DNA from: Minisyncoccota bacterium
GTDB lineage: Bacteria > Patescibacteriota > Minisyncoccia > Phycocordibacterales > UBA9973
Assembly (NCBI GenBank): GCA_041659785.1
Contig: JBAZXO010000001.1
Location: forward strand, 19,795 to 83,794
DNA length: 64,000 nt
Direction: 5' to 3'
The notes below the pieces were generated by a model. The model ran no database searches and was not told the DNA's origin. It saw nothing but the letters and a program-made list of their open reading frames with translations. Below are positions 2,864 to 63,555 of the stretch, piece by piece (the stretch's first letter is position 1; every line of letters begins with the position of its first letter). Position numbers and translations under genes: made by a program.

Positions 2864-3912
2864 TTATCACCTCCAGTTTTCAGGCCGAGCATTGTGTTGG
2901 GGTTACCCAAGACTAGGGTGCCCTGTACTTTGGCAAGTTCTTTCACTGCTTCCGTTTGGACGCGAGTATTTGCATCTGGTACGAGCTCAGTAATGTTGCC
3001 TTGTTCATCAGCTTTCGCGAGACCTGTTTTTACTAGACGTTTTCTTTCAGCCTCTGCAGCGAGTTCTGTTACTTTTGCAGCACCTTCTGCGGTGTGTACA
3101 GTTGCCTTAGCTTGCTGTTCTGCCTCTTTGACTGAGGTAACGGCTTTATTAAGCTCATGAGAGAATACAATCTGTTTAATGTATGCTTCACTAAGCTTAA
3201 TACCTCCACCTCCTTCTCTTTTCTCTATCTCTTTCCTGAATTCTGTCTCGAGCGTTGCATTGGTGGTGTTGAGGTTTCGTAAAGCTTTGGCTGGAGTTAC
3301 TTTGGAGAAGTCCTCACTACAGACTCGAATTGCTCGATCGCTCATGACTTGTCTGACTTTATCGGTTGTTCCGAAAACTCTTCGGAATACCATCATGTCT
3401 TCGATTTGCCAGCTTATGACCGGCACAACCTCAGCGACCATTGGGATGTTATAAGGATCCTTCTTCTCTTCATCAGAATCTGAAGAGTCTACCGGTCCGA
3501 ATTTAATTCGAATCGGAGGGAACATGCCGTCTGGCACTTTTTCCTTGTCGTCATTGCGAAAGATTTTTTCAGGGTCGGCGGGAAGCTCGTCCTGAAAGAG
3601 ATTCGCTGTTTCTTTATAAACTTTTGAAATTCCCGCCGGGGCAAAATATAGCCCTGGTTTTAAATTGCTTACGGGTTTACCAAAAATCTCGATCATGGCA
3701 ACTTCATCAGTTTTGATTGTGCCAAAACTGAATACTAGATAGGCCGTAACTAATGCTAACAGAACTGCTCCCGTATTGACACCGTATAGATTTATCCCAC
3801 TGAGCATCAGAACGACGCTAACGATGAATAAAGCAATTAAAAGAGAACCTATAAAGAATCTCATGGTATTTCCTTTCTTGCGCACGACGGCGCGAAAAGT
3901 GCTAAAGAGCAC
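2860..3912 (-). CDS. SPFH/band-7 (stomatin/prohibitin/HflK-like) membrane protein
   Basis: N-terminal TM helix. The C-terminal region (GIKLSEAYIKQIVFSHELNKAVTSVKEAEQQAKATVHTAEGAAKVTELAAEAERKR) is typical of the SPFH domain end. GC-rich relative to the genome. Confidence 0.55.
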   Translation of the reverse strand: MLFSTFRAVVRKKGNTMRFFIGSLLIALFIVSVVLMLSGINLYGVNTGAVLLALVTAYLVFSFGTIKTDEVAMIEIFGKPVSNLKPGLYFAPAGISKVYKETANLFQDELPADPEKIFRNDDKEKVPDGMFPPIRIKFGPVDSSDSDEEKKDPYNIPMVAEVVPVISWQIEDMMVFRRVFGTTDKVRQVMSDRAIRVCSEDFSKVTPAKALRNLNTTNATLETEFRKEIEKREGGGGIKLSEAYIKQIVFSHELNKAVTSVKEAEQQAKATVHTAEGAAKVTELAAEAERKRLVKTGLAKADEQGNITELVPDANTRVQTEAVKELAKVQGTLVLGNPNTMLGLKTGGDK

Positions 3913-4060
3913 ATTTGGTTGGTTTTATTCAATTTGCAAAGAATGGAGTAGAGACTTTTAACCATACGAATTGTATCATAGAATAACAAAAAAGTCAACC
4001 CCGAACCAAAGCACAGCTTGGTACGGGGCAGGCCCCTTATGCGTTTTTAAACAATAAAAA

Positions 4061-4917: not shown

Positions 4918-5022
4918 GTCACAAGTCATTGCTTGCTAGCAATGCTCGCGACCCCGCCTCGGCACGTCTGCCTCCGGCTTTCGAGTCCAAAAAATATACT
5001 TCGTATATTTTTGTATTTTTTG

Positions 5023-5104
5023 TGCTGGAGGAGGGACTCGAACCCTCAAGCCTTGCGGCACTAGTTCCTAAGACTAGCGCGTATACCAATTCCGCCACTC
5101 CAGC
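5023..5104 (-). tRNA. tRNA-Leu (anticodon TAG), long variable arm
   Basis: Reverse complement GCTGGAGTGGCGGAATTGGTATACGCGCTAGTCTTAGGAACTAGTGCCGCAAGGCTTGAGGGTTCGAGTCCCTCCTCCAGCA. Anticodon loop CTTAGGA. T-loop GTTCGAGTC. Confidence 0.85.
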
Positions 5105-5206
5105 AAAAAACGTTTTGTGGTCAGGCATAATTTTCTGCTGAAAATTTGCACGACCCTGGCTCGCGCCGTCGCGCTCCGCCTCGCAAAAAGTACATTAGTA
5201 CTTTTG

Positions 5207-5608: not shown

Positions 5609-5668
5609 CCACCTAACCCTCTCCTTATGAAGGAGAGGGTGGCATCTTTAATAAGATGACGGGTGAGG
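5609..5668. repeat. GC-rich palindromic element, family C copy (ccctctcc-ttatgaa-ggagaggg stem plus gggtgagg tail), downstream of rbfA; possible terminator
   Basis: ccacctaaccctctccttatgaaggagagggtgg ... gacgggtgagg. Same architecture as the copies at 22171-22225, 24626-24664 and 25063-25099. Confidence 0.7.
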
Positions 5669-5678
5669 TGTATTAATC

Positions 5679-6012: not shown

Positions 6013-7530
6013 TTACTTTTGTATTATTGAGAATGATTCGAGTACATCTCCAGCGACGACTTCTATTTTTGATTCAATCATCATTCCGAATTCAGATCCT
6101 TCTTCGACGGTGCTTGTTTTTATTTTATTTTTTTCTAAGTTAATGATTTTTGCACGACCAATTTCAAATTCTCTGCGCATTATTCTGACTGTACTGTTTA
6201 AGTTAATTTGTCCAACGGTAACTTTACCTCCCACTATTTGGCGTTCTTTTGTGCGGCTAAAAGCTCGAATAATCTTTGCGCTCCCTGTTGTCTCCATGGT
6301 TTCAATCTTGGGCCTTCTTATTTCCATTTGTTCTTCCAGCCATTCTGTCATTTTATAAATGATTTCAAAGTATGAAATAGTTATTCCTCTTTTTTCTGCT
6401 ATTTCTAGCGCGCTTTTATCTGTCTTTACATTAAATCCGATGACGAGCGCGTCTGCACCAGAAGATACTCCTTTTATATCAGATTCAGAAATGGGTCCGA
6501 TGCCTTTTACCACGATTTTAAATTCAGCATTATCGTTCTGTATTTTAGTGATTTCTTTTTCAATAGCCTCGATAGAACCTGAAACATCTGCTTTTAATAT
6601 TATAGGTATAATTTTTTTTTCTCCCCCTTGAGAAGGGGGAGTGCCCAAAGGGCGAGGGGGTAATTTTTCTTTCCAATTTTTCACACATTTTTCAGCATCG
6701 CTCTTTTTTTGAAAAGTTTTAAATTGTGCTCCAACTCTAGGCATTTTGTCGAAGCCCACAACACGCACCGGGGAAGAGAATGTAGCTTCATCGATTGATT
6801 TCCCCAGGAAATTTTCGATTATTCGAGTAGAGCACATAGTGTCTTCTACAACGACTGTCATACCTTTTTTAATTGAGCCATTTTTAATGACCAAGGTAGC
6901 CATTATTCCACGCCTAGAATCTAAATTTACTTCAATAACAAAACCAGAAGCGTCAGCGCTACTGTCACCGGTTAGATTTTCCATATCAGCTAGAATTAGA
7001 ATGAGTGATAGTAAATCATCCACGCCTGTGCCGACTTTTGCTGAAATTTCTGCAAATGGAACCTTGCCACCATAATTTTCTAGATAAATTTCATTTTCTG
7101 CTAATTCCATTTTTGTCTTTTCGACATTAGCACCTGGTTTATCTATTTTATTTATCGCGACGATATAAGGAATTTTAGATTCTGTAATAGTTTTCCAAGC
7201 TTCAATCGTCTGAGGCTTTACTCCATCTTCGGCTGACACTACTAAGATTGCGATATCAGCTATTTCTGCACCGCGTTCTCGCATTTTCGAGAAAGCTTCA
7301 TGCCCAGGTGTATCTAAGAAAGTTATCTTTCTATTTTGTCCATTTTCATCTTTATGAATAACTTCATAAGCAGAGATTCTCTGAGTTATTCCACCAGTTT
7401 CATTTTCAGTAATGTTTGTTTTTCTAATGTAGTCTAATAACGTAGACTTTCCATGGTCGATATGACCCATGACAGCCACTACTGGCGGATGTGCTATTAT
7501 TTGATTTTCTTTTTGTTTGTTTTTATCCAT
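6013..7530 (-). CDS. infB: translation initiation factor IF-2 (short form lacking N-terminal domains)
   Basis: G-domain [33 protein letters not shown], followed by the C-terminal beta-barrel domains. Confidence 0.9.
6621..6660. repeat. GC-rich palindromic element (family B) inserted in-frame inside infB; it encodes ..[18 protein letters not shown]..
   Basis: ctcccccttgagaagggggag is a perfect 7-bp-arm palindrome, followed by gcccaaagggc and gaggggg. Local GC far exceeds the rest of the gene. The reading frame is uninterrupted. Confidence 0.75.
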
Positions 7531-8035: not shown

Positions 8036-9334
8036 ATGCTCAAATCAAACTTGTCCCGCCGTGGCGGGGTAAAAGGATCAAATAAAATATATCTAGATTA
8101 TGCTGCGAGTGTAGAAGCGAATCCTAGTTCGATACATTCATTTGGCGTAGATGCAAAAATAAAACTTCAAAATGCGCGAAAAGAAGTAGCGAGTGTTTTA
8201 GGCTCTAGACCTGAAGAAATAATTTTTACGAGCGGTGGCACAGAAAGCAACAACCTTGCGATACAAGGAGTTGTTTGGTCAATTATTGAAATGCACACAT
8301 ATTCGCCTGTTGGCGAATTGCTCTGCTCGGCTCGTCAGCCCGCGCAAGGCATTTCAAAAACTACCAAACAACTCCTTCCACACATTATAACCACAAACAT
8401 AGAACATCCCTCAGTACTTGAGACTTTTAAATTATTAGAAAAAAGAAAACTCGCACAAATTTCTATAGTAGAAGTTGAAGCAAATGGGATAGTGGATCCA
8501 AAGAAAATAAAAAAAGAAATAAAGGAAAACACAATACTTGTTTCGGTTATGTATGCAAATAATGAAATAGGCACGATTCAGCCAATTCGTGAGATAGCAA
8601 AAGAGATTAGGCATTTTAAGAAAATAAAGGAAATCAATTTTTTCTCAGGTCCTCGGAAAAAATCCCCAGACCGTTCAAAAAAATTATTCCCTTCATTTTC
8701 TTTCCCGTTATTCCACACTGATGCAGTGCAAGCAGTTAATTATTTAGACCTTAATGTAGAAAGGCTCGGTGTGGATTTGCTTTCATTATCTGGCTCAAAA
8801 ATTGAGGGAGGAGGCAAAGTAGGAGTTCTTTATAAAAGAAAAATAGTTAAACTTGCAAATGTATATGGTGGAGGGGATCAAGAAATGGGATTACGTCCAG
8901 GGACAGAAAATTTATCAGAAATTTTGAAATTTTCTAGCGCATTAAAATTAGCGCAAGATATTAAAGAAAAAGAAAGTAAACGATTAACAAAACTTCGTGA
9001 TTATTTTTTTAGAGCCGTAGCGGGTAAGGCAATAATTAACGGTGATCTAAAAAATAGATTACCAAATAATGTGAATATAACGTTTCCAAAAATTCCAAGC
9101 GACCTTTTGGTTATTGAACTTTCTGCGAAAGGTATCATGGCATCTTCGAAAAGCGCTTGCAAAAGTTCCAGCTCAGAAGGTTCATATGTCATAAAAGCAA
9201 TACACCCAGAGATAGATAGAGAGATAGGCGGACTTCGTTTTTCGATGGGCAGAAAGACTACAAAGAAAGATATCGACTATACAATTAAAGTTTTATCTCA
9301 TATTTTGACAAAACTAAAAAAATGGTATGATTAG
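8036..9334 (+). CDS. cysteine desulfurase / class-V aminotransferase (IscS/NifS-like) with lineage-specific insertions
   Basis: IYLDYAAS N-terminus, ..TTNIEHPSVLE.., the PLP-lysine motif SLSGSKI, GLRPGTEN. A GC-rich mini-palindrome sits at codons 5-12 (8049-8069). Confidence 0.8.
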   Translation: MLKSNLSRRGGVKGSNKIYLDYAASVEANPSSIHSFGVDAKIKLQNARKEVASVLGSRPEEIIFTSGGTESNNLAIQGVVWSIIEMHTYSPVGELLCSARQPAQGISKTTKQLLPHIITTNIEHPSVLETFKLLEKRKLAQISIVEVEANGIVDPKKIKKEIKENTILVSVMYANNEIGTIQPIREIAKEIRHFKKIKEINFFSGPRKKSPDRSKKLFPSFSFPLFHTDAVQAVNYLDLNVERLGVDLLSLSGSKIEGGGKVGVLYKRKIVKLANVYGGGDQEMGLRPGTENLSEILKFSSALKLAQDIKEKESKRLTKLRDYFFRAVAGKAIINGDLKNRLPNNVNITFPKIPSDLLVIELSAKGIMASSKSACKSSSSEGSYVIKAIHPEIDREIGGLRFSMGRKTTKKDIDYTIKVLSHILTKLKKWYD

Positions 9335-18221: not shown

Positions 18222-18279
18222 TCCCCCTTATCAGGGGGACTTCTAATACCACGTATTTTCTCTCCCCTGACAAGGGGAG
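18222..18279. repeat. two family B GC palindromes (tcccccttatcaggggga; ctcccctgacaaggggag) in the intergenic spacer
   Basis: Read directly; each has 6-7 bp GC arms. Confidence 0.7.
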
Positions 18280-18338
18280 GATCAGGGAGGGGTTGTGTTC
18301 TGCTTTGTTTATTTTGCTTTTTATACTAAAATAAGAGC

Positions 18339-21225: not shown

Positions 21226-22470
21226 ATGAAGAAGAAAGTTGTTTTTGTCGGTATATCAGGAGGCGTAGATAGCGCTGTTTCAGCCGCAATGCTTAAAAAG
21301 CAGGGTTTTGACGTGGTGGGAGTTTTTATTAAAACTTGGCATCCAGATTTTCTAGAGTGTAATGAAGAAGATGAGCGTCGTGATGCTATGCGTGTGGCAG
21401 CTTTTTTAGATATTCCTTTTCTTACTTTTGATTTTGAAGATGTTTATAAAAAAGAAGTAGCTGACTATATGATAAGTGAATATAAGCTGGGGCGAACACC
21501 AAATCCAGATGTGATGTGCAACAAGGAAGTGAAGTTCGGCGCATTTCTTAAAAAAGCTCTTTCAATGGGTGCAGACTTTGTGGCGACTGGACATTATGCG
21601 GAGAATGGCGAGGTAAAAGTTGATTTTTTGAGTGGTGACGTTGCGAAGCAGGATATTCCTGAAAAAAAACAATTTTTACATCGCCAGCAAGACAAAACAA
21701 ATCATGCTTTTCTCAACCTGCCTGCTAAAGCAACGTCGGTATTCGAAAAACATAATTTGTTTTGTCTTAAAAAAGGTGTAGATTCATCCAAAGATCAAAG
21801 TTATTTTTTATGGACACTTAGACAAGAACAATTGAAGAAAATTTTATTTCCAATAGGGCATCTCAAAAAGACAGAAGTAAGAAAACTTGCTAAGAAATTT
21901 AGTCTTCCTGTAGCAGAGAAAAAGGATAGTCAAGGTATATGTTTTTTAGGAGCAGTAGATTTGAAAGATTTTTTGAAGCACTATATTAAAGTAAAAAAAG
22001 GAAAAGTTGAGAATGAAAAAGGGGAAGTAATTGGGCATCATGATGGGGCAGTTTTTTATACTTTAGGGGAAAGGCATGGTTTTACAATCACACAAAAAAC
22101 ACCGAAAGATGGTGCATATTACATAGTGGGTAAAGATATAAATAAAAATATTTTATATGTGTCACAAAATCCTCTCCCCAACCCCTCTCCATTAGTAACT
22201 AATGGAGAGGGGCGAAGGGGTGAGGCAATTAAAATTATTAATACAAATTGGATTTCAGAAGTTCCAGAAATTCACCCCGCCGATGGCGGGGCAAGTAAAA
22301 ACTATACTGCGCAGATTCGTTACCATAGTGAATTTTTGCCTTGCAAAATTAAAGTTCTTTCTAAGAATAAAGCTGAAATAATTTTTACAAAAACAATCTT
22401 GGTTGCTTCTGGCCAATCCATCGTGGTCTACGATGGTGATATTTGCTTGGGTGGTGGAGTAGTTGTATAA
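21226..22470 (+). CDS. mnmA: tRNA-specific 2-thiouridylase MnmA, carrying lineage-specific in-frame insertions
   Basis: VFVGISGGVDSAVSAAML PP-loop; ..ATGHYA..; KDQSYFLW. 414 aa against a typical ~360. Confidence 0.85.
   Translation: MKKKVVFVGISGGVDSAVSAAMLKKQGFDVVGVFIKTWHPDFLECNEEDERRDAMRVAAFLDIPFLTFDFEDVYKKEVADYMISEYKLGRTPNPDVMCNKEVKFGAFLKKALSMGADFVATGHYAENGEVKVDFLSGDVAKQDIPEKKQFLHRQQDKTNHAFLNLPAKATSVFEKHNLFCLKKGVDSSKDQSYFLWTLRQEQLKKILFPIGHLKKTEVRKLAKKFSLPVAEKKDSQGICFLGAVDLKDFLKHYIKVKKGKVENEKGEVIGHHDGAVFYTLGERHGFTITQKTPKDGAYYIVGKDINKNILYVSQNPLPNPSPLVTNGEGRRGEAIKIINTNWISEVPEIHPADGGASKNYTAQIRYHSEFLPCKIKVLSKNKAEIIFTKTILVASGQSIVVYDGDICLGGGVVV
22171..22295. repeat. two different GC palindromic elements inserted in-frame in mnmA: family C at 22171-22225 and family A at 22275-22295
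   Basis: cccctctccattagt-a-actaatggagagggg is a perfect 15-bp inverted repeat, followed by gaaggggtgagg. Then ccccgccgatggcggggcaag. They encode NPSPLVTNGEGRRGEA and HPADGGASK. Confidence 0.8.
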
Positions 22471-24625: not shown

Positions 24626-25099
24626 CCTCACCCCTGCCCCCTCTCCAGAATACTGGCGAGGGGTAAATGCAACATACTAAGTGTGCTATATTTTAAGTAA
24701 TGGTTATATTAAAAACAATAATTAAAGCAAGATATTTAAGGAAAGAAGAAACTAAAACAGAACAAATACTTTGGGAGAAACTTAGAAATAATAATCTTGG
24801 TATGAAATGGAGAAGACAGCATCCTTTGGATATGTTTATCCTTGATTTTTACGCACCTAAAATAAAACTCGCGATAGAATTAGACGGTTCTATTCATAAT
24901 ATAAAAGAAAATAAAGAATATGATAAAGATAGAACAGATTATTTGAAATCTAAAGATATACAAGTTCTGAGATTTTGGAATTCTGAAGTAGAAAAAGATT
25001 TAGAAAACGTTTTAAATAAAATAAAAGAAAAAACAAAAGAACTTTTATAAGTTTGTATTTTTCCCCTCTCTGGTACTCCGGAGAGGGGAAGGGGTGAGG
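24626..25099. mobile_element. candidate miniature cassette: a DUF559 gene bracketed by inverted copies of the family C GC palindromic element, with 10-bp terminal inverted repeats CCTCACCCCT / AGGGGTGAGG
   Basis: Left element 24626-24664 (cctcacccctgccccctctcc..gcgaggggt). Right element 25063-25099 (cccctctctggtactccggagaggggaaggggtgagg). The two ends are exact reverse complements. Confidence 0.5.
24700..25050 (+). CDS. DUF559 (Vsr-like PD-(D/E)xK endonuclease-fold) domain protein
   Basis: ARYLRKEETKTEQILWEKLRNNNLGMKWRRQHPLDMFILDFYAPKIKLAIELDGSIH..VLRFWNSEV matches the DUF559 consensus. Confidence 0.7.
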   Translation: MVILKTIIKARYLRKEETKTEQILWEKLRNNNLGMKWRRQHPLDMFILDFYAPKIKLAIELDGSIHNIKENKEYDKDRTDYLKSKDIQVLRFWNSEVEKDLENVLNKIKEKTKELL

Positions 25100-33101: not shown

Positions 33102-33740
33102 ATGGTAGATAAAGAAGAAAAGAAACTTGCCCCGTCCAAAGGCGGGGATAATGAAATTCCTACAGAGGGAGATACTTCCGAGGTTCTTGAATTTGAGTTC
33201 AACGAAGACGGGGAAGAAGATTTAAAGAAAACTCTAAAGAAATTTAGAGCGGACATAAAAGAACTCAAGAAAGAAAACTACGAGCTTAACGCCACAAGTA
33301 TTGAGTATCTTACTGGCTGGCAGAAAGAGCGAGCAGAATTCGCAAATTATAGAAAACAAGAAGATGAAAGAAAAGCAATCTTTTCCGAAGCGATGCGTGA
33401 GAGAATACTTACTCGTTTTTTGACCGTCTCTGATAGCTTCAACATGGCTTTCGCAAACAAAGAGGCTTGGGAAAAAGTCGATGATAATTGGCGTAAAGGT
33501 GTGGAATATATTTATGCTCAGATGAATGGAATATTTGAAGAATATGGAGTGAAACCCGTAGGTGAAGTAGGTGAGAGTTTTGACCCCAATATTCATCAAT
33601 CTGTCGATGTTGTAGAAACAGACAAAAAAGAACTAGAACACAAGGTGGCAACTGTGATACAAAAAGGCTATAAATTAGGCGAGCGCGTCATGCGTCCAGC
33701 TAGGGTAAATGTGTACGAGTTCAAAGAAAAAGTAGTATAA
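33102..33740 (+). CDS. grpE: nucleotide exchange factor GrpE (the N-terminal tail contains an in-frame family A palindrome)
   Basis: C-terminal ..KVATVIQKGYKLGERVMRPARVNV..; the element at 33126-33147 encodes KKLAPSKGGDNE. Confidence 0.85.
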   Translation: MVDKEEKKLAPSKGGDNEIPTEGDTSEVLEFEFNEDGEEDLKKTLKKFRADIKELKKENYELNATSIEYLTGWQKERAEFANYRKQEDERKAIFSEAMRERILTRFLTVSDSFNMAFANKEAWEKVDDNWRKGVEYIYAQMNGIFEEYGVKPVGEVGESFDPNIHQSVDVVETDKKELEHKVATVIQKGYKLGERVMRPARVNVYEFKEKVV

Positions 33741-43972: not shown

Positions 43973-45409
43973 TTAAATCTTAGAAATCTTTTGCCCCATG
44001 TTTGTATCCTTAACTTCATAACCCAGAGAATTTATTTTTTCTCGAAGCTCATCGGACTTTTTAAAATCTTTATCCTTGCGAGCTTGTTCGCGTTCTTCGG
44101 CTAGCTTTTTTACTTCTTCAGGAATTACGTCTTCCTTTAAGTGTTCGAAGCCTAACCCTAACACTTTATCGAAGTCTAAAATTGTAGCTTTCTTGTCGGC
44201 GTCTGACATGTTTTCATCTTTAAAAACATCCCACAATAATGCTAAAGCCCTAGGGGTGTCTAGGTCGTCTTCTATGTATTCTTTAAACTTATTTTGGTAT
44301 TCCTTATGTACATGGCCCACTTGCCCCGTCCTTGGCGGGGACTCATTTGCCCCCGCCTCAGGCGGGACAAGAAGCCCTAAATAAAGGCCATAAAGGCGTT
44401 TTAAGGCTGTTTCAGCGCCCTCGAGTGCTTCCCATACAAAGTTGACTTTAGTACGATAGCTAGCCATTAAAAGCCAAAAACGATAGGTTATAGGGTTTAT
44501 GTTTTTTTCAATTAAACTTTCCAATCTTAAAAAATTATTTGCTGATTTAGACATTTTCTCGTTACCTGTATCAACAAATTCACTATGCATCCAGAATTTA
44601 ACAAAAGGCTTTTTACCAGTAGCGCATTCTGATTGAGCTATTTCATTTGTGTGATGTGTAGGTATAAGATCAATGCCCCCTGTGTGAATATCAAATTGTT
44701 CACCAAGAAATTTTAGACCCATAGCAGAACATTCAATGTGCCATCCCGGAAAACCAATTCCGAAAGGGGATTCAAAACCAATTTTATTATCAGTCTTCCA
44801 CAATGCGAAATCTTCAGGATTTATTTTTTCAGAATTTTCTGTTACCCTAGCTCCTTCTTTGTTCCAGTCCCTTTTACCACTCCAAAGTGCTCCATAGTCA
44901 GGCATTTTAGAAACATTGAAATATATTCCATCACTTGTTTTATATGTGTATCCTTTTTCTGTTAGTTTTTGGATTAATTCAATGTCTTCTTTAACATAAT
45001 CGCTTGCAAAATATAAACCTGAAGGCATTTCGATATTAAGGGCTTGTAAATCTTTTTTAAAACTTTCAGTATAAAATTCTGCAAGCTCACGCATGTTTTT
45101 TAGCGTTAATTCTTTTCCTTCTCGCAAAAGTCCCTTGGTCATTTTATCTTCACCAGAATCAGCATCACTTGAAAGATGCCCGATGTCAGTGATGTTCATG
45201 ACTTGCTTTACTATAAATCCTTCATATTGAAGAGTGCGATGTACCAAGTCGGCAAAAAAGAAAGAACGCAAATTACCTATATGGGTATAGTTATAAACTG
45301 TTGGGCCACAGGTATACATTCGTACCTCCTTCGGATCTATGGGGGTAAAAATGTCTTTTTCTTTAGTTAGAGTGTTGTAAAATTTTAAAGCCATTTTATT
45401 TAAATTCAC
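43973..45409 (-). CDS. cysS: cysteinyl-tRNA synthetase carrying an in-frame double GC-palindrome insertion
   Basis: MYTCGPTVYNYTHIGNLR (HIGH), KMSKS, zinc-binding Cys/His residues. The insertion encodes ..VPPEAGANESPPRTGQVGH. Confidence 0.9.
   Translation of the reverse strand: MNLNKMALKFYNTLTKEKDIFTPIDPKEVRMYTCGPTVYNYTHIGNLRSFFFADLVHRTLQYEGFIVKQVMNITDIGHLSSDADSGEDKMTKGLLREGKELTLKNMRELAEFYTESFKKDLQALNIEMPSGLYFASDYVKEDIELIQKLTEKGYTYKTSDGIYFNVSKMPDYGALWSGKRDWNKEGARVTENSEKINPEDFALWKTDNKIGFESPFGIGFPGWHIECSAMGLKFLGEQFDIHTGGIDLIPTHHTNEIAQSECATGKKPFVKFWMHSEFVDTGNEKMSKSANNFLRLESLIEKNINPITYRFWLLMASYRTKVNFVWEALEGAETALKRLYGLYLGLLVPPEAGANESPPRTGQVGHVHKEYQNKFKEYIEDDLDTPRALALLWDVFKDENMSDADKKATILDFDKVLGLGFEHLKEDVIPEEVKKLAEEREQARKDKDFKKSDELREKINSLGYEVKDTNMGQKISKI
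44320..44371. repeat. composite of two adjacent family A palindromes inside cysS
   Basis: cttgccccgtccttggcgggg + actcatttg + cccccgcctcaggcgggacaag. The outer ends cttgcccc.../...gggacaag are themselves inverted. Confidence 0.75.
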
Positions 45410-47478: not shown

Positions 47479-47495
47479 GTTTGGTTATTATATAC

Positions 47496-47545
47496 CCCCT
47501 CCGCCTTTGGCACCTCCCCCTTATTAAGGGGGAGGAAGGGTGGGG
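47496..47545. repeat. perfect 23-nt palindrome cctcccccttattaagggggagg (family B), flanked by ccgcctttgg and an aagggtgggggtga tail, between recR and dnaB
   Basis: Read directly. Confidence 0.75.
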
Positions 47546-47550
47546 GTGAC

Positions 47551-55344: not shown

Positions 55345-57867
55345 TTAGTCAAGTAAAGTGGAAAGGAAACTGTGGATAACTTTTTTATCTCTTTTGAGCC
55401 AAGCGATATTGCCCTCTAGTCGTTCAATAATTTGTTCAATTGCGCGCTTGGCACCTGGGGCTTCGTGGTTGGCGAAGAATTTCTTGAAATTTTTTAGATG
55501 TTTTTCCTCGCTACTGCCAGAAATTGCTTTTACGGCTCTACCCAATGTGAGCCCTCCTTCACCATATCGTGATACAAGAGTCTTCCAATTCTTTTGAATA
55601 AAATTCCACCATATATCACGGCCATGTGGGTTAGCTCCGACACCTGAAAGAATGCCCACAGTGTCTTGGATGCGGACATTTTTAGACAATGCAAATTCAC
55701 AAGCCATTTTTAGAATCTTTGGATTAGAAAAATCTCCCAGGGCATTGCCTATGCGATTTTTCTCTTCATGCAGTGTTTCTTTTTTGTATTGTTTTATTAA
55801 TATGTTGTATTCTTTTATTCCACCATGAGTGGCTACTATCGAATATACAGCACCACGGATATCTGGAGATACTTGGTGGTTTTTTTGTATTTGTGAGAAT
55901 TTCTTTCTAGCTTCAGAAATTATTTTCTTGTCTCCAGAGACACCAGCGCGAGAAAGTGCAAGTGAACGAAGAAGTGTGTCTGCATGGGTTTCATTTTCCC
56001 CGCCTTTGGACGGGGCAAGCTTTTTATCCCAGCCGAGACGCAGAGCAACAGGGGAGAATAAATCTAATACAAGTTTATCCAAATTTTCTTTTGCGGGAGT
56101 TTTTGCTATAATCTGTCCTAGTCTAGAGAGGCCTGAAGCAATTTCAACCCAGACGGTATAATTATCTTCATTTTTAAAAGCCTTTAAAAATTCTAATGCA
56201 TCTGTGGTAGGTATTGTACCAGCTTCCGCTAAAGCGAAAAGATCTCGAACGATACCAAGCCTATCTCGAGGGGAGAGTAATTTTTTAGATACTGGTTCTA
56301 TGAGTTTTTCTAAAAGCTCTTTACTATATGCTGTTCTATAAAATCCTGTTTCACAAAAATTAATTTTTAGGTAGGCTTCGCTTGAAACTACTTTTATTGG
56401 CACCTGCCAAATAGTTTTATCTTTTGCTAGAGCTTTAGACTTTGGACTTGCAAAAAACCTTTCTTGAGTTAAGGAAAGTTTATTTTTTACCATACTTGCT
56501 TTGATAACAGGGTAGCCTGGTTTAGATGTCCAATTATGCATCATTTTGGCGACTGATTTTTTAGAAACTTTTTCAAAAGCTCTCCAGAGGTCTAGTGTCT
56601 CTGTATTTTTATAGCTGTGTTTTTTTAAATAATAACGAAGTCCATCACGAAAATCTTTTTCTCCTAGGTAGTCTGCGAGCATTCGGATTATCGATGCTCC
56701 TTTTGAATAAGATACTTCGTCGAATATTTCTCCTATCTCATCTGGATGATGAACTTCCACTTCTATTGGGTGAGTACTCTTGAGTGCGTCGAGCCGCAGA
56801 GCTACACCAAGATCGCTCGTAGAGAATTGTGTCCAAATATCCCATTTTGGGAAAAGTTTATCTACTGCTAGATATTCTATATATGAAGCAAAACCTTCGT
56901 TCAGCCATAAATGTGTCCACCATTCCATCGTTACTAAATTACCGAACCATTGATGCGCTAGTTCATGTGCTACGACGAGTGCTACCCATTGTTTATTTGA
57001 TGAAGAAGAATAATTTTCATCTACCAAGAGTGCACTTTCTCTATAAGTTACGGCACCCCAATTCTCCATTGCACCTGAGGCAAAGTCTGGAATAGCTATC
57101 ATGTCTAGTCCTGGTAATGGGTAAACAATATCAAAATATTTTTCATAAAATTCGAGAGTTTTAACTGCGCATTCGAGAGCAAATTTTGCTTGATGTTTTT
57201 TACCAGGAGTTGTATACACCCGAACTTGTACACCTCTTTTTGTTTTAGATTCTAGGTATTCAAAATCACCAATAATGAATGCTAAAAGGTAAGTGGACAT
57301 TTTAGGCGTAGGGGAAAATTTAACAATTTCATATTGAGCTTCATGTTCCAATACAGATATGGGCAATGTGTTAGAAATAGCAGTTTTTCCTTTTGGAATG
57401 ACGAGAGACACATGGAAAACTGCTTTGTGTGCAGGCTCGTCGAAGCAGGGGAAAGCACGTCGTGCGTCCGTAGCTTCGAATTGTGTTGTCGCCATATGAT
57501 GCGTCTTACCATTTACTTGATATTGACTGCGATAAAAACCACGCATTTTATCATTTAATATTCCCTTAAAAACAAGGTTTAACCTTGTTTTTCTTACAGT
57601 GATTAATTGGGGAAATAAAAAAGTAGCTGTTTCTTGTTTTTTATTGTAAGTAATTTTTGCAAAAATTTTCTCTCCTCCCATCAATACATCTGCCGTATCT
57701 ATCTCAATTTCCTTTGAGTGTAGAGTTAGTGTTTTTGTATTTTTTAAAATTAAGAGATTTATTGTTTCAACACCACTAAAAGTAAAGTTCTCTAAATCTG
57801 GTTTCAGTTGGATATCATATTTTATGGGAGTAACATTTTTTGAAAGACGAACCTCTTTTTTTATCAT
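55345..57867 (-). CDS. pepN: M1-family aminopeptidase N carrying an in-frame family A palindrome
   Basis: GAMENWG; HELAHQWFGNLVTMEWWTHLWLNEGFASY (HExxH...E). The insertion encodes KKLAPSKGGENE. Confidence 0.9.
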   Translation of the reverse strand: MIKKEVRLSKNVTPIKYDIQLKPDLENFTFSGVETINLLILKNTKTLTLHSKEIEIDTADVLMGGEKIFAKITYNKKQETATFLFPQLITVRKTRLNLVFKGILNDKMRGFYRSQYQVNGKTHHMATTQFEATDARRAFPCFDEPAHKAVFHVSLVIPKGKTAISNTLPISVLEHEAQYEIVKFSPTPKMSTYLLAFIIGDFEYLESKTKRGVQVRVYTTPGKKHQAKFALECAVKTLEFYEKYFDIVYPLPGLDMIAIPDFASGAMENWGAVTYRESALLVDENYSSSSNKQWVALVVAHELAHQWFGNLVTMEWWTHLWLNEGFASYIEYLAVDKLFPKWDIWTQFSTSDLGVALRLDALKSTHPIEVEVHHPDEIGEIFDEVSYSKGASIIRMLADYLGEKDFRDGLRYYLKKHSYKNTETLDLWRAFEKVSKKSVAKMMHNWTSKPGYPVIKASMVKNKLSLTQERFFASPKSKALAKDKTIWQVPIKVVSSEAYLKINFCETGFYRTAYSKELLEKLIEPVSKKLLSPRDRLGIVRDLFALAEAGTIPTTDALEFLKAFKNEDNYTVWVEIASGLSRLGQIIAKTPAKENLDKLVLDLFSPVALRLGWDKKLAPSKGGENETHADTLLRSLALSRAGVSGDKKIISEARKKFSQIQKNHQVSPDIRGAVYSIVATHGGIKEYNILIKQYKKETLHEEKNRIGNALGDFSNPKILKMACEFALSKNVRIQDTVGILSGVGANPHGRDIWWNFIQKNWKTLVSRYGEGGLTLGRAVKAISGSSEEKHLKNFKKFFANHEAPGAKRAIEQIIERLEGNIAWLKRDKKVIHSFLSTLLD
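55987..56008. repeat. family A palindrome (reverse orientation) inside pepN, near-identical (with flanks, about 33 nt) to the grpE copy
   Basis: Reverse complement aagcttgccccgtccaaaggcggggaaaatgaa, against grpE aaacttgccccgtccaaaggcggggataatgaa. Confidence 0.8.
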
Positions 57868-59149: not shown

Positions 59150-59938
59150 ATGATGGAAAGAGATATTTTCCAAATAAAGACTGCTAGTTTCGAAGGGCCC
59201 TTTGGGCTACTTCTTAGTTTAGTGGAAAAAAGAAAGCTTTTTATAAATGATGTATCTCTCGCTCAGGTTACAGAGGATTATTTAGCATACATAAATAAAT
59301 TAGGCGGGCTACCTCCAGCTGAAATTTCTAGCTTTATCCTAGTAGCCTCTACATTACTTCTCATTAAATCGAAATCATTACTACCCAACCTAGACCTTAC
59401 AAATGAAGAAGAAGGAGATATTCGTAATCTGGAAGAAAGGTTACGTCTATATGAGATGTTTACAAAATTATCTGTAAATATTAAAAGTAATTTTGGAAAG
59501 AAAATAATCTTTGCACCTTTGGAGCGTAAGGGTAGTGTTTTAGTATTTTTGCCAGACGATCAGATTACAAAAGAATCCATGATGACTTTTGCGCAGAATG
59601 TCCTCGGAGCGATGCCGAAAAAAGTATTTTTACCTAAAGTAGAGGTGAAAGTCGTCATCAGTATCGAGGAAATGATAGACAAGTTAACTGAGAGGATAAA
59701 AAATTCACTCAAAATAAATTTTAAAGATTTTCATGGACAAGGTGGTACGACCGCCACACGCGAAGAAAAGATAGTTGTAATTGTGGGATTTCTTGCTATG
59801 CTAGAGCTTGTCAGACAAGGAATGATTGATGCTACGCAGGAGGCTGATTCTGCTGATATTTTTATTGAAAAGACTGAAATTCTAGACGTCGGACATCAAG
59901 ATTCCCAGATGTCCGACGTCTCAGAGATTATAAATTAA
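59150..59938 (+). CDS. scpA: segregation and condensation protein A
   Basis: ..FEGPFGLLLSLVEKRKLFINDVSLAQVTEDYLAYI.. Confidence 0.8.
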   Translation: MMERDIFQIKTASFEGPFGLLLSLVEKRKLFINDVSLAQVTEDYLAYINKLGGLPPAEISSFILVASTLLLIKSKSLLPNLDLTNEEEGDIRNLEERLRLYEMFTKLSVNIKSNFGKKIIFAPLERKGSVLVFLPDDQITKESMMTFAQNVLGAMPKKVFLPKVEVKVVISIEEMIDKLTERIKNSLKINFKDFHGQGGTTATREEKIVVIVGFLAMLELVRQGMIDATQEADSADIFIEKTEILDVGHQDSQMSDVSEIIN

Positions 59939-62457: not shown

Positions 62458-63555
62458 ATGAAGGAAAAAAAAGTAGATAGATTTTTTCTAATAATTGTAC
62501 TTATATTACTTTTTTTTGGTGTTGCTATGTTTGTCTCAGCATCACTTGGGGTCTTGGCGAAGAATCCAGCCATTTTTTATCAAGTGATTTTTAGCCAGTT
62601 AGTCCTCGGCCTCGGCCTCGGCCTCGTTGGTATGTATTTTTGTTTTAAAATTGATTACAAACTTTTACGTAATTATTCCTTTTTAATTTTTGTGGGTTCG
62701 ATACTTTTGACTGCGGCAGTTTTCATACCATTTTTAGGATGGAGTCATGGGGGAGCGGAGAGATGGATACAAATAGGGAGATTCAATTTTCAGCCGGTAG
62801 AATTTTTAAAATTTGGTTTTGTTATTTATTTTGCAGCATGGCTGTCTTGGACAAGAAATAAAGTGCAAGATTTTAGATTTAAAATTTTGCCATTTATGGT
62901 GATGATTGTGGTCATCGCTGTTGTCTTACTCAAACAGCCAGACACAAAAAGTTTTATTTTAATTACAGTCACTGGTGTATCGATGCTTTTTTTATCGAGT
63001 GTTCCTGTTAAATATATTCTAGGCACACTATTGGGAGTGATAATATTACTCGGAACTCTCGTATTTGTTACTCCTTATTTACAACAACGTGTGAAAACTT
63101 TTATTAATCCGAGCGGGGATGCACAAGGCTCTTCTTATCAAATTCAGCAATCACTCATCGCTCTCGGATCTGGCGGAATGTTTGGTAGAGGTTTCGGCCA
63201 AAGTGTACAGAAATTTAGTTATTTGCCAGAACCACAAGGCGACTCTATTTTCGCTGTTTTAGGTGAAGAATTAGGTTTTATCGGTTCAACATTAACGATA
63301 TTTCTTTATATTCTTTTTATCTTACGCGGGTTTCGTATTGCTAGTCGTTCACCGGATTCTTTTAGTGGACTTTTGGTATATGGAATTGTTATACTTATTA
63401 CAGCACAGTCTTTTATGCACATTGCTTCTGTTACTGGAGTCTTTCCGTTGACCGGAGTTCCGCTTGTTTTTATGAGTCAGGGAGGTACTTCACTTATGGT
63501 GTATCTTATGGCAATAGGTATTGTGCTTAATATATCGAGATTTCAGCGGATATGA
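62458..63555 (+). CDS. ftsW: SEDS-family peptidoglycan glycosyltransferase FtsW/RodA
   Basis: ..GGAERWIQIGRFNFQPVEFLKFG.., 10 TM; gene order mraY-ftsW-murG. Confidence 0.8.
   Translation: MKEKKVDRFFLIIVLILLFFGVAMFVSASLGVLAKNPAIFYQVIFSQLVLGLGLGLVGMYFCFKIDYKLLRNYSFLIFVGSILLTAAVFIPFLGWSHGGAERWIQIGRFNFQPVEFLKFGFVIYFAAWLSWTRNKVQDFRFKILPFMVMIVVIAVVLLKQPDTKSFILITVTGVSMLFLSSVPVKYILGTLLGVIILLGTLVFVTPYLQQRVKTFINPSGDAQGSSYQIQQSLIALGSGGMFGRGFGQSVQKFSYLPEPQGDSIFAVLGEELGFIGSTLTIFLYILFILRGFRIASRSPDSFSGLLVYGIVILITAQSFMHIASVTGVFPLTGVPLVFMSQGGTSLMVYLMAIGIVLNISRFQRI
62604..62626. repeat. hexanucleotide SSR (cctcgg) x about 3.8 inside ftsW (encodes GLGLGLG)
   Basis: gtcctcggcctcggcctcggcctcg read directly. Confidence 0.8.

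Follow-up and report, generated by a model that had tools for sequence, protein, structure and literature searches.

Small palindromic elements lie in frame in the loops of the tRNA 2-thiouridine synthase gene mnmA of a Patescibacterium

The mnmA gene of an uncultured, ultra-small member of the Patescibacteria (CPR; Candidatus Paceibacterota) of 36% GC, which encodes a tRNA 2-thiouridine synthase (21226-22470, + strand; a single ORF of 414 aa), is the host of four in-frame palindromic inserts. The explanation favoured here, to which a probability of roughly 0.75 is given, is that four small elements, palindromic and non-autonomous, have colonised mnmA, where they are inserted in frame in loops and linkers of the protein, and that these loops serve as landing pads across the clade. 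Two of the inserts, named elements 1 and 2, had been recognised in the preliminary description of this DNA as members of different palindromic families lying in frame in mnmA; both their coordinates and their sequences proved accurate, and the gap between them is 49 nt. At least four unrelated families of elements share the same loops of MnmA.

The protein holds the three Pfam domains HUP (residues 6-242), PRC barrel (247-314), and C-terminal barrel (334-413), and its ORF can be aligned to solved MnmA structures as far as the C-terminus (PDB matches, E = 1e-83), with no stop and no frameshift across elements 1 and 2. The 120 MnmA orthologues compared are 349 to 431 aa long, with a median of 389, so that the contrast drawn previously between 414 aa and a typical length of ~360 is about right. 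This variation is found only at residues 130-179 (0-51 aa), at residues 322-334 (2-33 aa), and in minor loops. Pfam boundaries, gaps in the PDB alignment, and coil with low pLDDT in an AF2 model all identify the inserts as loops. In this model, built with 120 sequences (a run with 25 sequences was set aside, pLDDT 59), residues 132-176 form a coil at the tip of a beta-hairpin (strands E126-131 and E177-182), and pLDDT falls below 50 at residues 319-332, the region of element 1.

As the reading frame is kept, the inserts are presumably translated. The alternative, in which they would be cut from the mRNA or bypassed, like the yeast mitochondrial byp elements or the T4 gene 60 gap, is very improbable, even though G+C-rich hairpins with very stable stems in an A+T-rich genome are what it would predict. 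All inserts in the 120 orthologues keep the frame, lack stops, and have lengths that are multiples of three, and element 1 has stops in four of its six frames, yet the frame that is used is open. Unless the inserts are read, no such filter on frame and stops is expected. Scarcely credible is an artefact of assembly or sequencing, for instance an inverted repeat created by chimerism or a frameshift left uncorrected. The DNA comes from a metagenome-assembled genome and element 2 is present in this assembly only, but the ORF continues unbroken to the conserved C-terminus, an identical element 1 is found in L234, from an independent ENA assembly, and near-identical ones in six further assemblies from different projects, and the core of the family to which element 2 belongs occurs five times elsewhere in the window (the whole 64-kb stretch of DNA analysed here) as well as in three relatives. 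The frameshift against which the preliminary description had cautioned is thus not borne out.

Element 1 (22171-22225, both strands; residues 316-333) is a palindromic G/C-rich intrastrand triplex motif located between the PRC-barrel and the C-terminal barrel domains, where it is read in the mnmA frame as PLPNPSPLVTNGEGRRGE. Its core, CCCCTCTCCATTAGT, occurs exactly at 22182-22196 (+) and 22198-22212 (-), confirming the perfect 15-bp inverted repeat previously described (15+1+15 around one base, 22182-22212). The element is composed of four blocks, CCTCTCCCC (22171-22179), CCCCTCTCC (22182-22190), GGAGAGGGG (22204-22212), and GGGGTGAGG (22217-22225), with a self-complementary spacer, ATTAGTAACTAAT (22191-22203), between the two inner ones. 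Its GC3 is 0.44, compared to 0.25 in the remainder of mnmA. Folded as RNA, the region (67 nt) reaches -39.4 kcal/mol (z = -7.6), and none of 200 shuffles folds equally well. Membership in the triplex class was defined by three consecutive blocks, the first C-rich, the second G-rich and Watson-Crick complementary to the first, and the third G-rich and mirroring the second, with at most one mismatch, and the purine-motif triads scored were G*G:C, A*A:T, and T*A:T. The blocks at 22182-22190, 22204-22212, and 22217-22225 give 9/9 Watson-Crick pairs and 9/9 triads; the same is true for the minus strand, where the third block is 22171-22179.

Judged by this layout, the family that the preliminary description called C is a motif already known in the literature, the G/C-rich intrastrand triplex motif named TM_ECO, BoxC, or PIT (Holder et al., Nucleic Acids Res 2015; PMC4666352). 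Element 1 itself is placed by its sequence in the wider G/C-rich class II triplex class rather than strictly in TM_ECO, because its register is shifted by one base and its loops are of 13 and 4 nt. It consequently fails the published pattern, CCCTCNCCC-N3-6-GGGNGAGGG-N3-GGGNGAGGG, in which loop 1 has 3-6 nt and loop 2 has 3 nt (PMC4666352). The core of the triplex motif is cosmopolitan, being found in contigs of 31-72% GC. An Rfam scan at gathering thresholds returned only tRNAs; matches to Pab91 and mir-4433 over element 1 (E = 0.1-1, far below gathering) were dismissed as chance matches to a hairpin.

Element 1 is not private to the source genome. The preliminary description had set the sharing of identical inserts by orthologues against its reading of mnmA as a hotspot, and this is partly the case, in that a near-identical element 1 occupies the same site in 8 of the 120 orthologues; the pattern is, however, patchy and not universal. 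The second- and third-closest relatives (P0004 and P0002, the latter being locus L001) carry a different element at this site. Among the carriers, pairwise diversity at codon positions 1, 2, and 3 is 0.08, 0.13, and 0.095 in element 1, versus 0.19, 0.10, and about 0.50-0.52 in its flank (third positions, element 1 versus flank: MWU p = 4e-7), and the identity peak (0.90) is restricted to the blocks of the element. The examination of codon positions proposed previously thus reveals no codon periodicity in element 1. Since all three positions are equally conserved, the constraint would act on the DNA of element 1 and not on its peptide, and the element, as judged from these sequences, is held constant as DNA. 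Any such constraint is not absolute, given that the copies in L236-L238 carry stem-breaking substitutions or a 3-nt deletion.

Conservation at all codon positions, above that of any flanking coding window, would also be expected if selection maintained the hairpins for a role as mRNA or DNA structures, such as translational pausing at domain boundaries in aid of co-translational folding, RNase processing, or protein binding, in which case they would not be passive selfish insertions. A hairpin is found in the linker of nearly every orthologue, whatever its sequence, and even in 19-aa linkers of 'empty' length (-38.8 kcal/mol in L024), and one G:C to A:T change in the stem of element 1 is compensatory between the window and L002. 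Nevertheless, this interpretation is quite unlikely: the same element sequences occur in either orientation as well as in other genes and spacers, the linkers of many orthologues fold weakly (-1 to -7 kcal/mol), some copies of element 1 are decaying, element 2 is present in one genome only, and the PIT/TM motifs of E. coli exhibit neither promoter nor terminator activity (PMC4666352). An argument from covariation in the stem of element 1 was dropped, as there is a single compensatory change and several copies are stem-breaking.

The distribution of element 1 can also be read as a variant of the colonisation model, in which the element is not inherited but has been inserted repeatedly and independently at the same nucleotide by a site-specific, homing-like process. 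The eight carriers fall into five separate groups of the NJ tree and were monophyletic in none of 100 bootstraps, the element is 84-100% identical among them versus 62-80% for the flanks, triplex motifs are concentrated in mnmA, and in L044 and L051 this site holds a triplex motif of opposite orientation. However, the tree is star-like, with all orthologues beyond the three closest neighbours being ~80% identical, the carriers share both the junctions and the following IKIIN codons, as expected of common descent, and decayed copies exist. This variant is therefore considered somewhat unlikely, and with a star-like tree a single old insertion followed by many losses cannot be separated from recurrent site-specific insertion.

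Further upstream, the preliminary description had proposed an additional insertion of ~35 aa. Its existence was confirmed, but not its size, which is about 48 aa between residues 130 and 179, and the insertion is itself made up of two further palindromic elements, forming two adjoining long hairpins (21606-21686 and 21689-21768; z = -5.3, DNA fold). The first, U1 (21606-21686, +), is an 81-nt palindrome in the DNA fold, with the arms TGGCGAGGTAAAAGTTG and CAATTTTTACATCGCCA, and encodes a ..FLSGDVAKQDIPEKK.. module that recurs in the orthologues P0002, P0013, P0015, and P0090. The second, U2 (21689-21768, +), is an 80-nt MITE-like palindrome bounded by 14-nt terminal inverted repeats, AAGACAAAACAAAT and ATTTGTTTTGTCTT. 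Its end type, CAAGAYAAAA, is that of a 111-nt MITE with 17-nt terminal inverted repeats which is present twice in the mnmA gene of each of the relatives L070, L023, and L004, and the similarity between copies of the 111-nt element stops exactly at these repeats.

Element 2 (22270-22296, -) is a family A hairpin oriented in reverse to mnmA, with ACTTGCCCCGCCATCGGCGGGGTGAAT on the minus strand and a stem at 22275-22291, the position of the core CCCCGCCGATGGCGGGG, for which 0 matches are expected by chance. This 7-bp G+C hairpin folds with -14.7 kcal/mol (z = -3.1) and is read in the mnmA frame as (I)HPADGGAS. These nine codons (IHPADGGAS) replace two in the relatives, a net gain of 21 nt, and the element is absent from 119 of the 120 MnmA orthologues. 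From its sequence and distribution, element 2 is taken to be a G+C hairpin of ~21-27 nt from a REP-like family, probably gained recently in the source lineage.

The consensus of family A is CTTGCCCCGYC-loop-GRCGGGG, that is, CTTG followed by a 7-bp stem with a 3-5-nt loop. As previously suggested, the family is multi-copy: besides element 2, the window holds five more copies, and the family is found at another site of mnmA in relatives. All six copies lie inside genes. That in grpE (33120-33155, +) is in frame near the N-terminus as KKLAPSKGGDNE and is identical at 33 of 36 positions to that in the gene of a pepN-like M1-family aminopeptidase (gene 55345-57867, -; copy 55990-56025, -), which is read in frame as KKLAPSKGGENE. 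In cysS (43973-45409, -), two inverted copies 5 nt apart form an in-frame, REPIN-like doublet (44320-44371, no single strand) between the catalytic and the anticodon-binding domains, with a fold of -41 kcal/mol. The fact that all six copies are intragenic was rejected as significant, since its probability is ~0.5 at a coding density of ~90%. A total of 33 family A matches in viral contigs, mostly of 55-69% GC, were also discarded, as they look like unrelated G+C hairpins.

The multi-copy nature of family C holds as well, as additional copies are located at 24626-24663 and 25063-25099 and in relatives. An intergenic triplex motif at 18260-18292 (+) has the layout CTCCCC-loop-GGGGAG-N5-GGGAGGGG. 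Another triplex-type palindrome lies in frame in infB (6621-6660, -) and is homologous to an intergenic palindromic motif between recR and dnaB (47495-47546), which is triplex-capable on both strands. Altogether, in-frame palindromic elements are found in mnmA, infB, cysS, grpE, the M1 peptidase gene, and an Aminotran_5 ORF. The window holds 17 G+C-rich perfect hairpins versus 0-4 in Markov shuffles, and a strict triplex scan of it returned four loci with six strand hits versus none in 20 shuffles; relaxed rules yield more copies.

The designation of mnmA as a hotspot is upheld by the confinement of its length variation to a few loops and by the enrichment of the motif: across 80 related loci, 25 of 33 triplex-type motifs lie inside mnmA, which represents 17.7% of the DNA (p = 5e-13). 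The two loop hotspots also gather other MITE-like elements, and the same families of elements occur at both of them and upstream of mnmA. Neither the junctions of the 111-nt element in its two L070 copies nor elements 1 and 2 show a target-site duplication, no transposase or excision footprint was found for either element 1 or element 2, and no parent insertion sequence was seen for the MITE-like ones. It is thus their distribution only that suggests that the elements move.

According to the colonisation model, elements would be retained only where the frame is preserved and the site is a loop or an inter-domain linker, so that the product of mnmA would still function as an enzyme, with additional Pro/Gly-rich loops that are probably disordered. 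The constancy of element 1 as DNA could be due to continuing gene conversion or re-insertion from other copies, or to a constraint at the nucleic-acid level. Throughout the clade, the two main loops of MnmA would be landing pads on which elements accumulate again and again, probably because these loops tolerate insertions and because palindromes already present attract further ones.

A candidate trans-acting partner of family C is encoded 2.4 kb downstream of mnmA, where a gene for a 116-aa protein with a DUF559/Vsr-like endonuclease fold (24700-25050, +; Pfam PF04480, E = 1.9e-31) is bracketed by inverted triplex motifs. One of them lies 37 nt upstream of the gene (24626-24663, -; CCTCACCCC-TGC-CCCCTCTCC-loop-GGCGAGGGG) and the other 13 nt past its stop codon (25063-25099, +; CCCCTCTC-loop-GAGAGGGG-AA-GGGGTGAGG). 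Both are nearer to the published TM pattern, with loops of 8-10 and 2-3 nt. Another DUF559 paralogue (P0230) encoded on the same contig was not located. The same bracketing is observed in L240-L244 and in L118, L130, and L183. It is found in CPR loci of three different genomic contexts, with L052 representing the empty site, and it recurs at ycjD of E. coli and in cyanobacteria, Deinococcus, and Neisseria. Among eight diverse loci picked by the DUF559 protein alone, seven have motifs, at 2.5 motifs/kb versus 0.025/kb in controls, the exception being a Sinorhizobium locus. The link is also found in metagenome loci picked by the motif alone, ~5% of which carry DUF559, a proportion expected of one nuclease gene per many repeats.

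This association is correlative. By analogy with the spread of REPs by RAYT, the Vsr-like nuclease may spread or homogenise triplex motifs, and it is tentatively proposed, as a possibility short of an even chance, that small DUF559 proteins spread and homogenise their own species-specific triplex motifs across Bacteria, including into the loops of essential genes of Patescibacteria such as mnmA. If so, this would constitute a second, non-homologous system of the REP-RAYT type, with BoxC/TM motifs as the cargo of a nuclease, and motifs written into the loops of essential genes would be translated and yet remain constant as DNA. The bracketing provides a testable partner for two orphans, a widespread domain and a repeat of unknown origin. 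An incomplete literature search on DUF559 together with BoxC or triplex motifs found nothing relevant, and neither did one on CPR together with palindromic or in-frame repeats.

BoxC/TM repeats have been known as orphans in E. coli since the 1990s. Element 1 and the copies at 24626, 25063, 18260, and 47495 share with them the three-block layout, with blocks that are nearly the published CCCTCTCCC, GGGAGAGGG, and GGGGTGAGGG, as well as the multi-copy nature, the inverted ('palindromic') pairs, and the link to locally unstable DNA. Apart from the longer loops and the shifted register of element 1, the main differences are the 36% GC Patescibacterium host, the DUF559 gene bracketed by the motif, and the in-frame location inside mnmA and infB, whereas the motif of E. 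coli is 'always located intergenically' (Holder et al. 2015, PMC4666352). That study counted TM_ECO in 262 proteobacterial genomes with no associated protein reported, and described neither a stable triplex in vivo nor a link to mobile elements in E. coli. Its counts differ among strains of E. coli, where 1 and 29 copies of TM_ECO are recorded, and Salmonella has none. As far as could be found, element 1 may be the first BoxC/TM repeat placed within a coding sequence, and it offers a natural test bed for what maintains triplex motifs.

REPs are extragenic by definition, and RAYT is an HUH/Y1 transposase. Family A resembles REPs and REPINs in its short imperfect palindromes, its asymmetric 5' CTTG, its inverted doublet in cysS, and its many copies, but differs in that all of these lie inside ORFs. 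The DUF559 gene bracketed by inverted triplex motifs likewise recalls a RAYT gene, as a single nuclease gene flanked by inverted repeat copies. However, DUF559 has a Vsr-like PD-(D/E)XK fold, and the relation with RAYT is one of analogy, not homology; no RAYT was seen among the selected ORFs of the window scanned against Pfam. On the other hand, U2 and the 111-nt element of the relatives are MITE-like in their 14-17-nt terminal inverted repeats, lack of own coding capacity, and several copies, unlike elements 1 and 2, which are palindromic throughout rather than bounded by such repeats and do not reach the usual length of MITEs.

Mitochondrial GC clusters and byp elements are G+C-rich, and byps, which disrupt the frame, are bypassed. 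The inserts in mnmA share with these organellar elements the presence of G+C-rich or perfect palindromes in protein-coding genes of A+T-rich reduced genomes, but always keep the frame. Perfect palindromes inside protein-coding genes have also been reported for the mtDNA of Nematomorpha (PMC6649704).

The closest likeness in kind is to the RPEs, palindromic repeats found in frame in Rickettsia genes (Ogata et al. 2000, as recounted in PMC10969869), of which the mnmA inserts represent a variant: both are in-frame selfish DNA. As far as that account describes them, RPEs are likewise palindromes of a bacterium with a small genome, located in housekeeping genes that are unrelated to each other and at sites that the fold of the protein can accommodate. 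They are set apart by length and conservation pattern, being of ~100-150 bp with a conserved peptide per family, whereas the inserts described here have 21-81 nt and element 1 is conserved at the DNA level; the phylum is another one, and the hotspots are shared by several families unrelated to one another. In practice, inserts of this type make proteins longer, give rise to false 'novel' loops in CPR proteomes, and cause short-read assemblies to break. The colonisation of essential genes by in-frame palindromes, best known from Rickettsia, would thereby extend to the Candidate Phyla Radiation.

The mnmA gene (21226..22470, + strand) of this Candidatus Paceibacterota/Nomurabacteria-type MAG (CPR, 36% GC) is an ORF of 414 aa that matches solved MnmA structures (E = 1e-83) as far as the C-terminus and holds three Pfam domains (aa 6-242, 247-314, and 334-413). 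Element 1, a palindromic triplex motif, comprises a perfect 15+1+15 palindrome as its core (22182-22212) and two side blocks, CCTCTCCCC (22171-79) and GGGGTGAGG (22217-25), while element 2 is a hairpin with a 7-bp G+C stem and a 3-nt loop (22275-22291), followed by CAAGT. Since both are far more stably folded than their shuffles (z = -7.6 and -3.1, respectively) and continue the reading frame of mnmA, giving PLPNPSPLVTNGEGRRGE and IHPADGGAS, the two different in-frame palindromes reported in the preliminary description are confirmed in coordinates, stems, folding, and frame. The further insertion that it placed upstream also exists, but measures ~48 aa instead of ~35 aa and is made up of a further pair of long palindromes, at 21606-21686 and 21689-21768 (z = -5.3), mnmA thus holding four palindromic inserts in total. 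An identical MnmA protein is carried by a contig of 318 kb. It is exceedingly improbable that the inserts are an assembly artefact, and non-translated inserts are very unlikely too.

We consider it about 75% probable that these inserts are selfish in-frame repeats. Small palindromic repeats would be copied into mnmA, the survivors being those copies that fall in loops, keep the frame, and read through it without a stop (of the six frames of element 1, four contain stops), and these would be translated as disordered Pro/Gly-rich loops. In an AlphaFold model built from 120 sequences (pLDDT 74.6), every insert is predicted as coil: the upstream insert caps the tip of a beta-hairpin (E126-131/E177-182), element 1 separates the PRC barrel from the C-terminal barrel (pLDDT <50 at aa 319-332), and element 2 falls within the loop at aa 343-359.

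Among 120 orthologous MnmA proteins (349-431 aa), length variation is limited to a few sites, namely aa 130-179 (0-51 residues) and aa 322-334 (2-33 residues), together with minor variable-length loops after aa 262, 348, and 359. With regard to inserts common to the orthologues, both elements differ. Element 2 is absent from all the others, having nine codons versus two in relatives (net +21 nt), and is a recent gain, whereas element 1 occupies the identical site in 8 of the 120, in a patchy distribution. The nearest relative (P0003, 90%) is the only one of the three closest that holds element 1, and the second and third (P0004, 89%, and P0002, 86%, the latter encoded in locus L001; both identities computed over conserved columns) bear a different 41-aa palindromic element at that site. 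The small loop at the element 2 site is a minor hotspot too, because the mnmA of another genome (L002, ~4000-4040) has a different 39-nt palindrome (SPARNAFSIADAGG) three codons past it.

The linker inserts of relatives belong to at least eight recurrent families, which also fill the upstream hotspot, often within one genome. A 111-nt MITE with 17-nt terminal inverted repeats (ends CGCAAGATAAAAAGATG / CATCTTTTTATCTTGCG) is found twice per mnmA in L070, L023, and L004. The two copies, which lie at 3367-3471 and 3889-3993 in L070, occupy both hotspots in the same frame, and similarity between the MITE copies ends exactly at the terminal repeats; at the sequence level, these double occurrences are direct evidence that such elements get copied to new sites. 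Because the MITE end encodes QDKN, which is also the start of many short mnmA linkers, these linkers may be element remnants. In L024, L033, and L052, the entire 19-aa linker, of 'empty' length yet palindromic, is the AGACGTCCAACGTC palindrome, to which a stem of 14 perfectly paired bp (AGACGTCGGACATC...) at the scpA 3' end (59884-59921) is similar. In relatives, the linker element 'SPDIFLLKNSS' has a core that matches 5160-5178, in a region between tRNA genes with very G+C-rich stretches (4939-5187; 0.79-0.83). This core also resembles (BLAST match from L071) the G+C-rich core of a ~109-nt palindrome at 8267-8375 (-50 kcal/mol, 13-nt inverted ends), in frame in a class-V aminotransferase (cysteine-desulfurase-like) ORF (8036..9334).

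Element 2 is a member of family A (consensus CTTGCCCCGYC-N3-5-GRCGGGG), of which five further copies lie in the 64-kb window, every one intragenic. An inverted doublet in cysS (44320-44371), between the catalytic and anticodon-binding domains, is REPIN-like (copies 5 nt apart; -41 kcal/mol), and the copies near the grpE N-terminus (33120-33155) and in the M1 aminopeptidase gene (55990-56025) are identical at 33/36 positions, flanks included, and share their reading frame, KKLAPSKGG(D/E)NE. Family A is also found at another mnmA loop in three relatives (..KGKV-LLAPSEAG-NEKGE..). Family C, that of element 1, has copies at 24626-24663 and 25063-25099 and related forms at 18260, 47495, and 5616, as well as in frame in infB (6621-6660, - strand), where the triplex-type palindrome has a clear homologue in the intergenic 47495-47546, between recR and dnaB. 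Another kind of repeat, the hexamer CCTCGG/GCCTCG, occurs four times in tandem at 62600-62631, in the ORF 62458..63555, and is read LGLGLGL.

The proposal that mnmA is a hotspot holds in 80 related loci of ~7 kb each, selected for mnmA alone, where 25 of the 33 triplex-type motifs lie within the mnmA ORF, at aa ~132-154 and ~287-329, the ORF making up 17.7% of the sequence (p = 5e-13). Their concentration exceeds simple tolerance and suggests targeting, perhaps of resident palindromes, since nested and tandem elements are present in L032, L034, L051, and at 5616 of the window. In this last motif (5616-5670), adjoining tRNA-Cys, an insert of 20 nt that is a small hairpin itself stands between the motif's own hairpin and the third block, giving the appearance of one element nested in another.

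The codon-position periodicity that the preliminary description proposed to examine was analyzed in seven element 1 copies from different assemblies, with an eighth (L238, bearing a 3-nt deletion inside the element) used in the flank figures only. Diversity at codon positions 1/2/3 is 0.19/0.10/0.50 in the flanking coding sequence, an ordinary periodicity that is absent from element 1 (0.08/0.13/0.095; third positions, MWU p = 4e-7). Among 15-nt windows of the region, conservation is highest at the four element 1 blocks (0.90 versus 0.6-0.83), the identity peak stops short of the flanks, and GC3 is 0.44 versus 0.25 in the rest of mnmA. Owing to the lack of periodicity, the block-confined peak, and the high GC3, the DNA sequence of element 1, and not its peptide, is maintained against the A+T pressure of the genome, possibly by gene conversion, by re-insertion from other copies, or by a nucleic-acid-level function. 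A selected RNA or DNA structure would agree with this uniformity and with the folding of the inserts; stem-breaking changes are found in some copies (L236-L238), and we regard this explanation as improbable. Homing-like recurrent insertion of element 1 is less remote, although still doubtful: its carriers are non-monophyletic in an NJ tree, whose star-like shape is compatible with both one ancient and several independent insertions.

On both strands, the blocks of element 1 match in 9/9 Watson-Crick pairs and 9/9 purine-motif triads, the structure that defines the G/C-rich intrastrand triplex motif named TM_ECO, BoxC, or PIT (Holder et al. 2015, PMC4666352). This motif, for which neither a function nor a mobilising enzyme is known, folds into a triplex in vitro when single-stranded, marks unstable loci, and is present in 23 copies in E. 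coli K-12, 'always located intergenically' (PMC4666352). Element 1, however, breaks the intergenic rule, a coding location that is new relative to that description (PMC4666352), and neither its loop lengths nor the register of its blocks follow the strict E. coli TM_ECO pattern; it belongs to the broader class of G/C-rich triplex motifs, not strictly to TM_ECO. Its core (CCCTCTC..GAGAGGG..GGGGTGAGG) was found by a metagenome scan in contigs of 31-72% GC, among the matches listed, and is therefore cosmopolitan.

The window also holds a DUF559 (Vsr-like endonuclease fold) gene (24700..25050), bracketed by inverted triplex motifs (24626-25099) whose blocks are those of element 1; L052 has 66 nt in place of this ~600-nt cassette. 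Bracketing recurs in two further genomic contexts among CPR DUF559 loci picked by protein alone (L240-L244), and metagenome loci picked by motif alone have the DUF559 arrangement in 6/120, with the gene flanked by motifs on either side in three cases (L118, L130, and L183). Diverse DUF559 loci from a plasmid collection hold motifs in seven of eight cases, each with its own species-specific motif (L245-L251), at a density of 2.5 per kb, ~100-fold that of unrelated control loci (0.025 per kb), and shuffles contain at most one motif in total. In ycjD, the single E. coli K-12 DUF559 gene examined (L239), the stop codon is overlapped by a motif-like hairpin, with TM_ECO no. 9 a further 167 nt along. 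The arrangement thereby spans CPR, E. coli, cyanobacteria, Deinococcus, Neisseria, and Photobacterium. Between ycjD and TM_ECO no. 9 there is also a 25-nt duplicate of the ycjD 3' end (L239 1037-1061 versus 1136-1164), which looks like a relic of an additional or rearranged DUF559 copy.

From these associations we infer that DUF559 may mobilise or homogenise triplex motifs, a connection for which no paper was found in the literature searched. The DNA uniformity of element 1 would most likely come about through repeated conversion, with the motif copies of the genome as donors, by a DUF559-dependent nick-and-repair route, this DUF559 step being tentative.

The literature searched contained no description of palindromic repeats lying in frame in CPR genes. 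Among known systems, the bracketing of DUF559 by triplex motifs parallels REP repeats and their transposase RAYT, and family A behaves like REP/REPIN, except for its intragenic location. The Rickettsia palindromic elements are functionally alike to the mnmA inserts, which, however, fall outside that family, differing in size and in the type of conservation.
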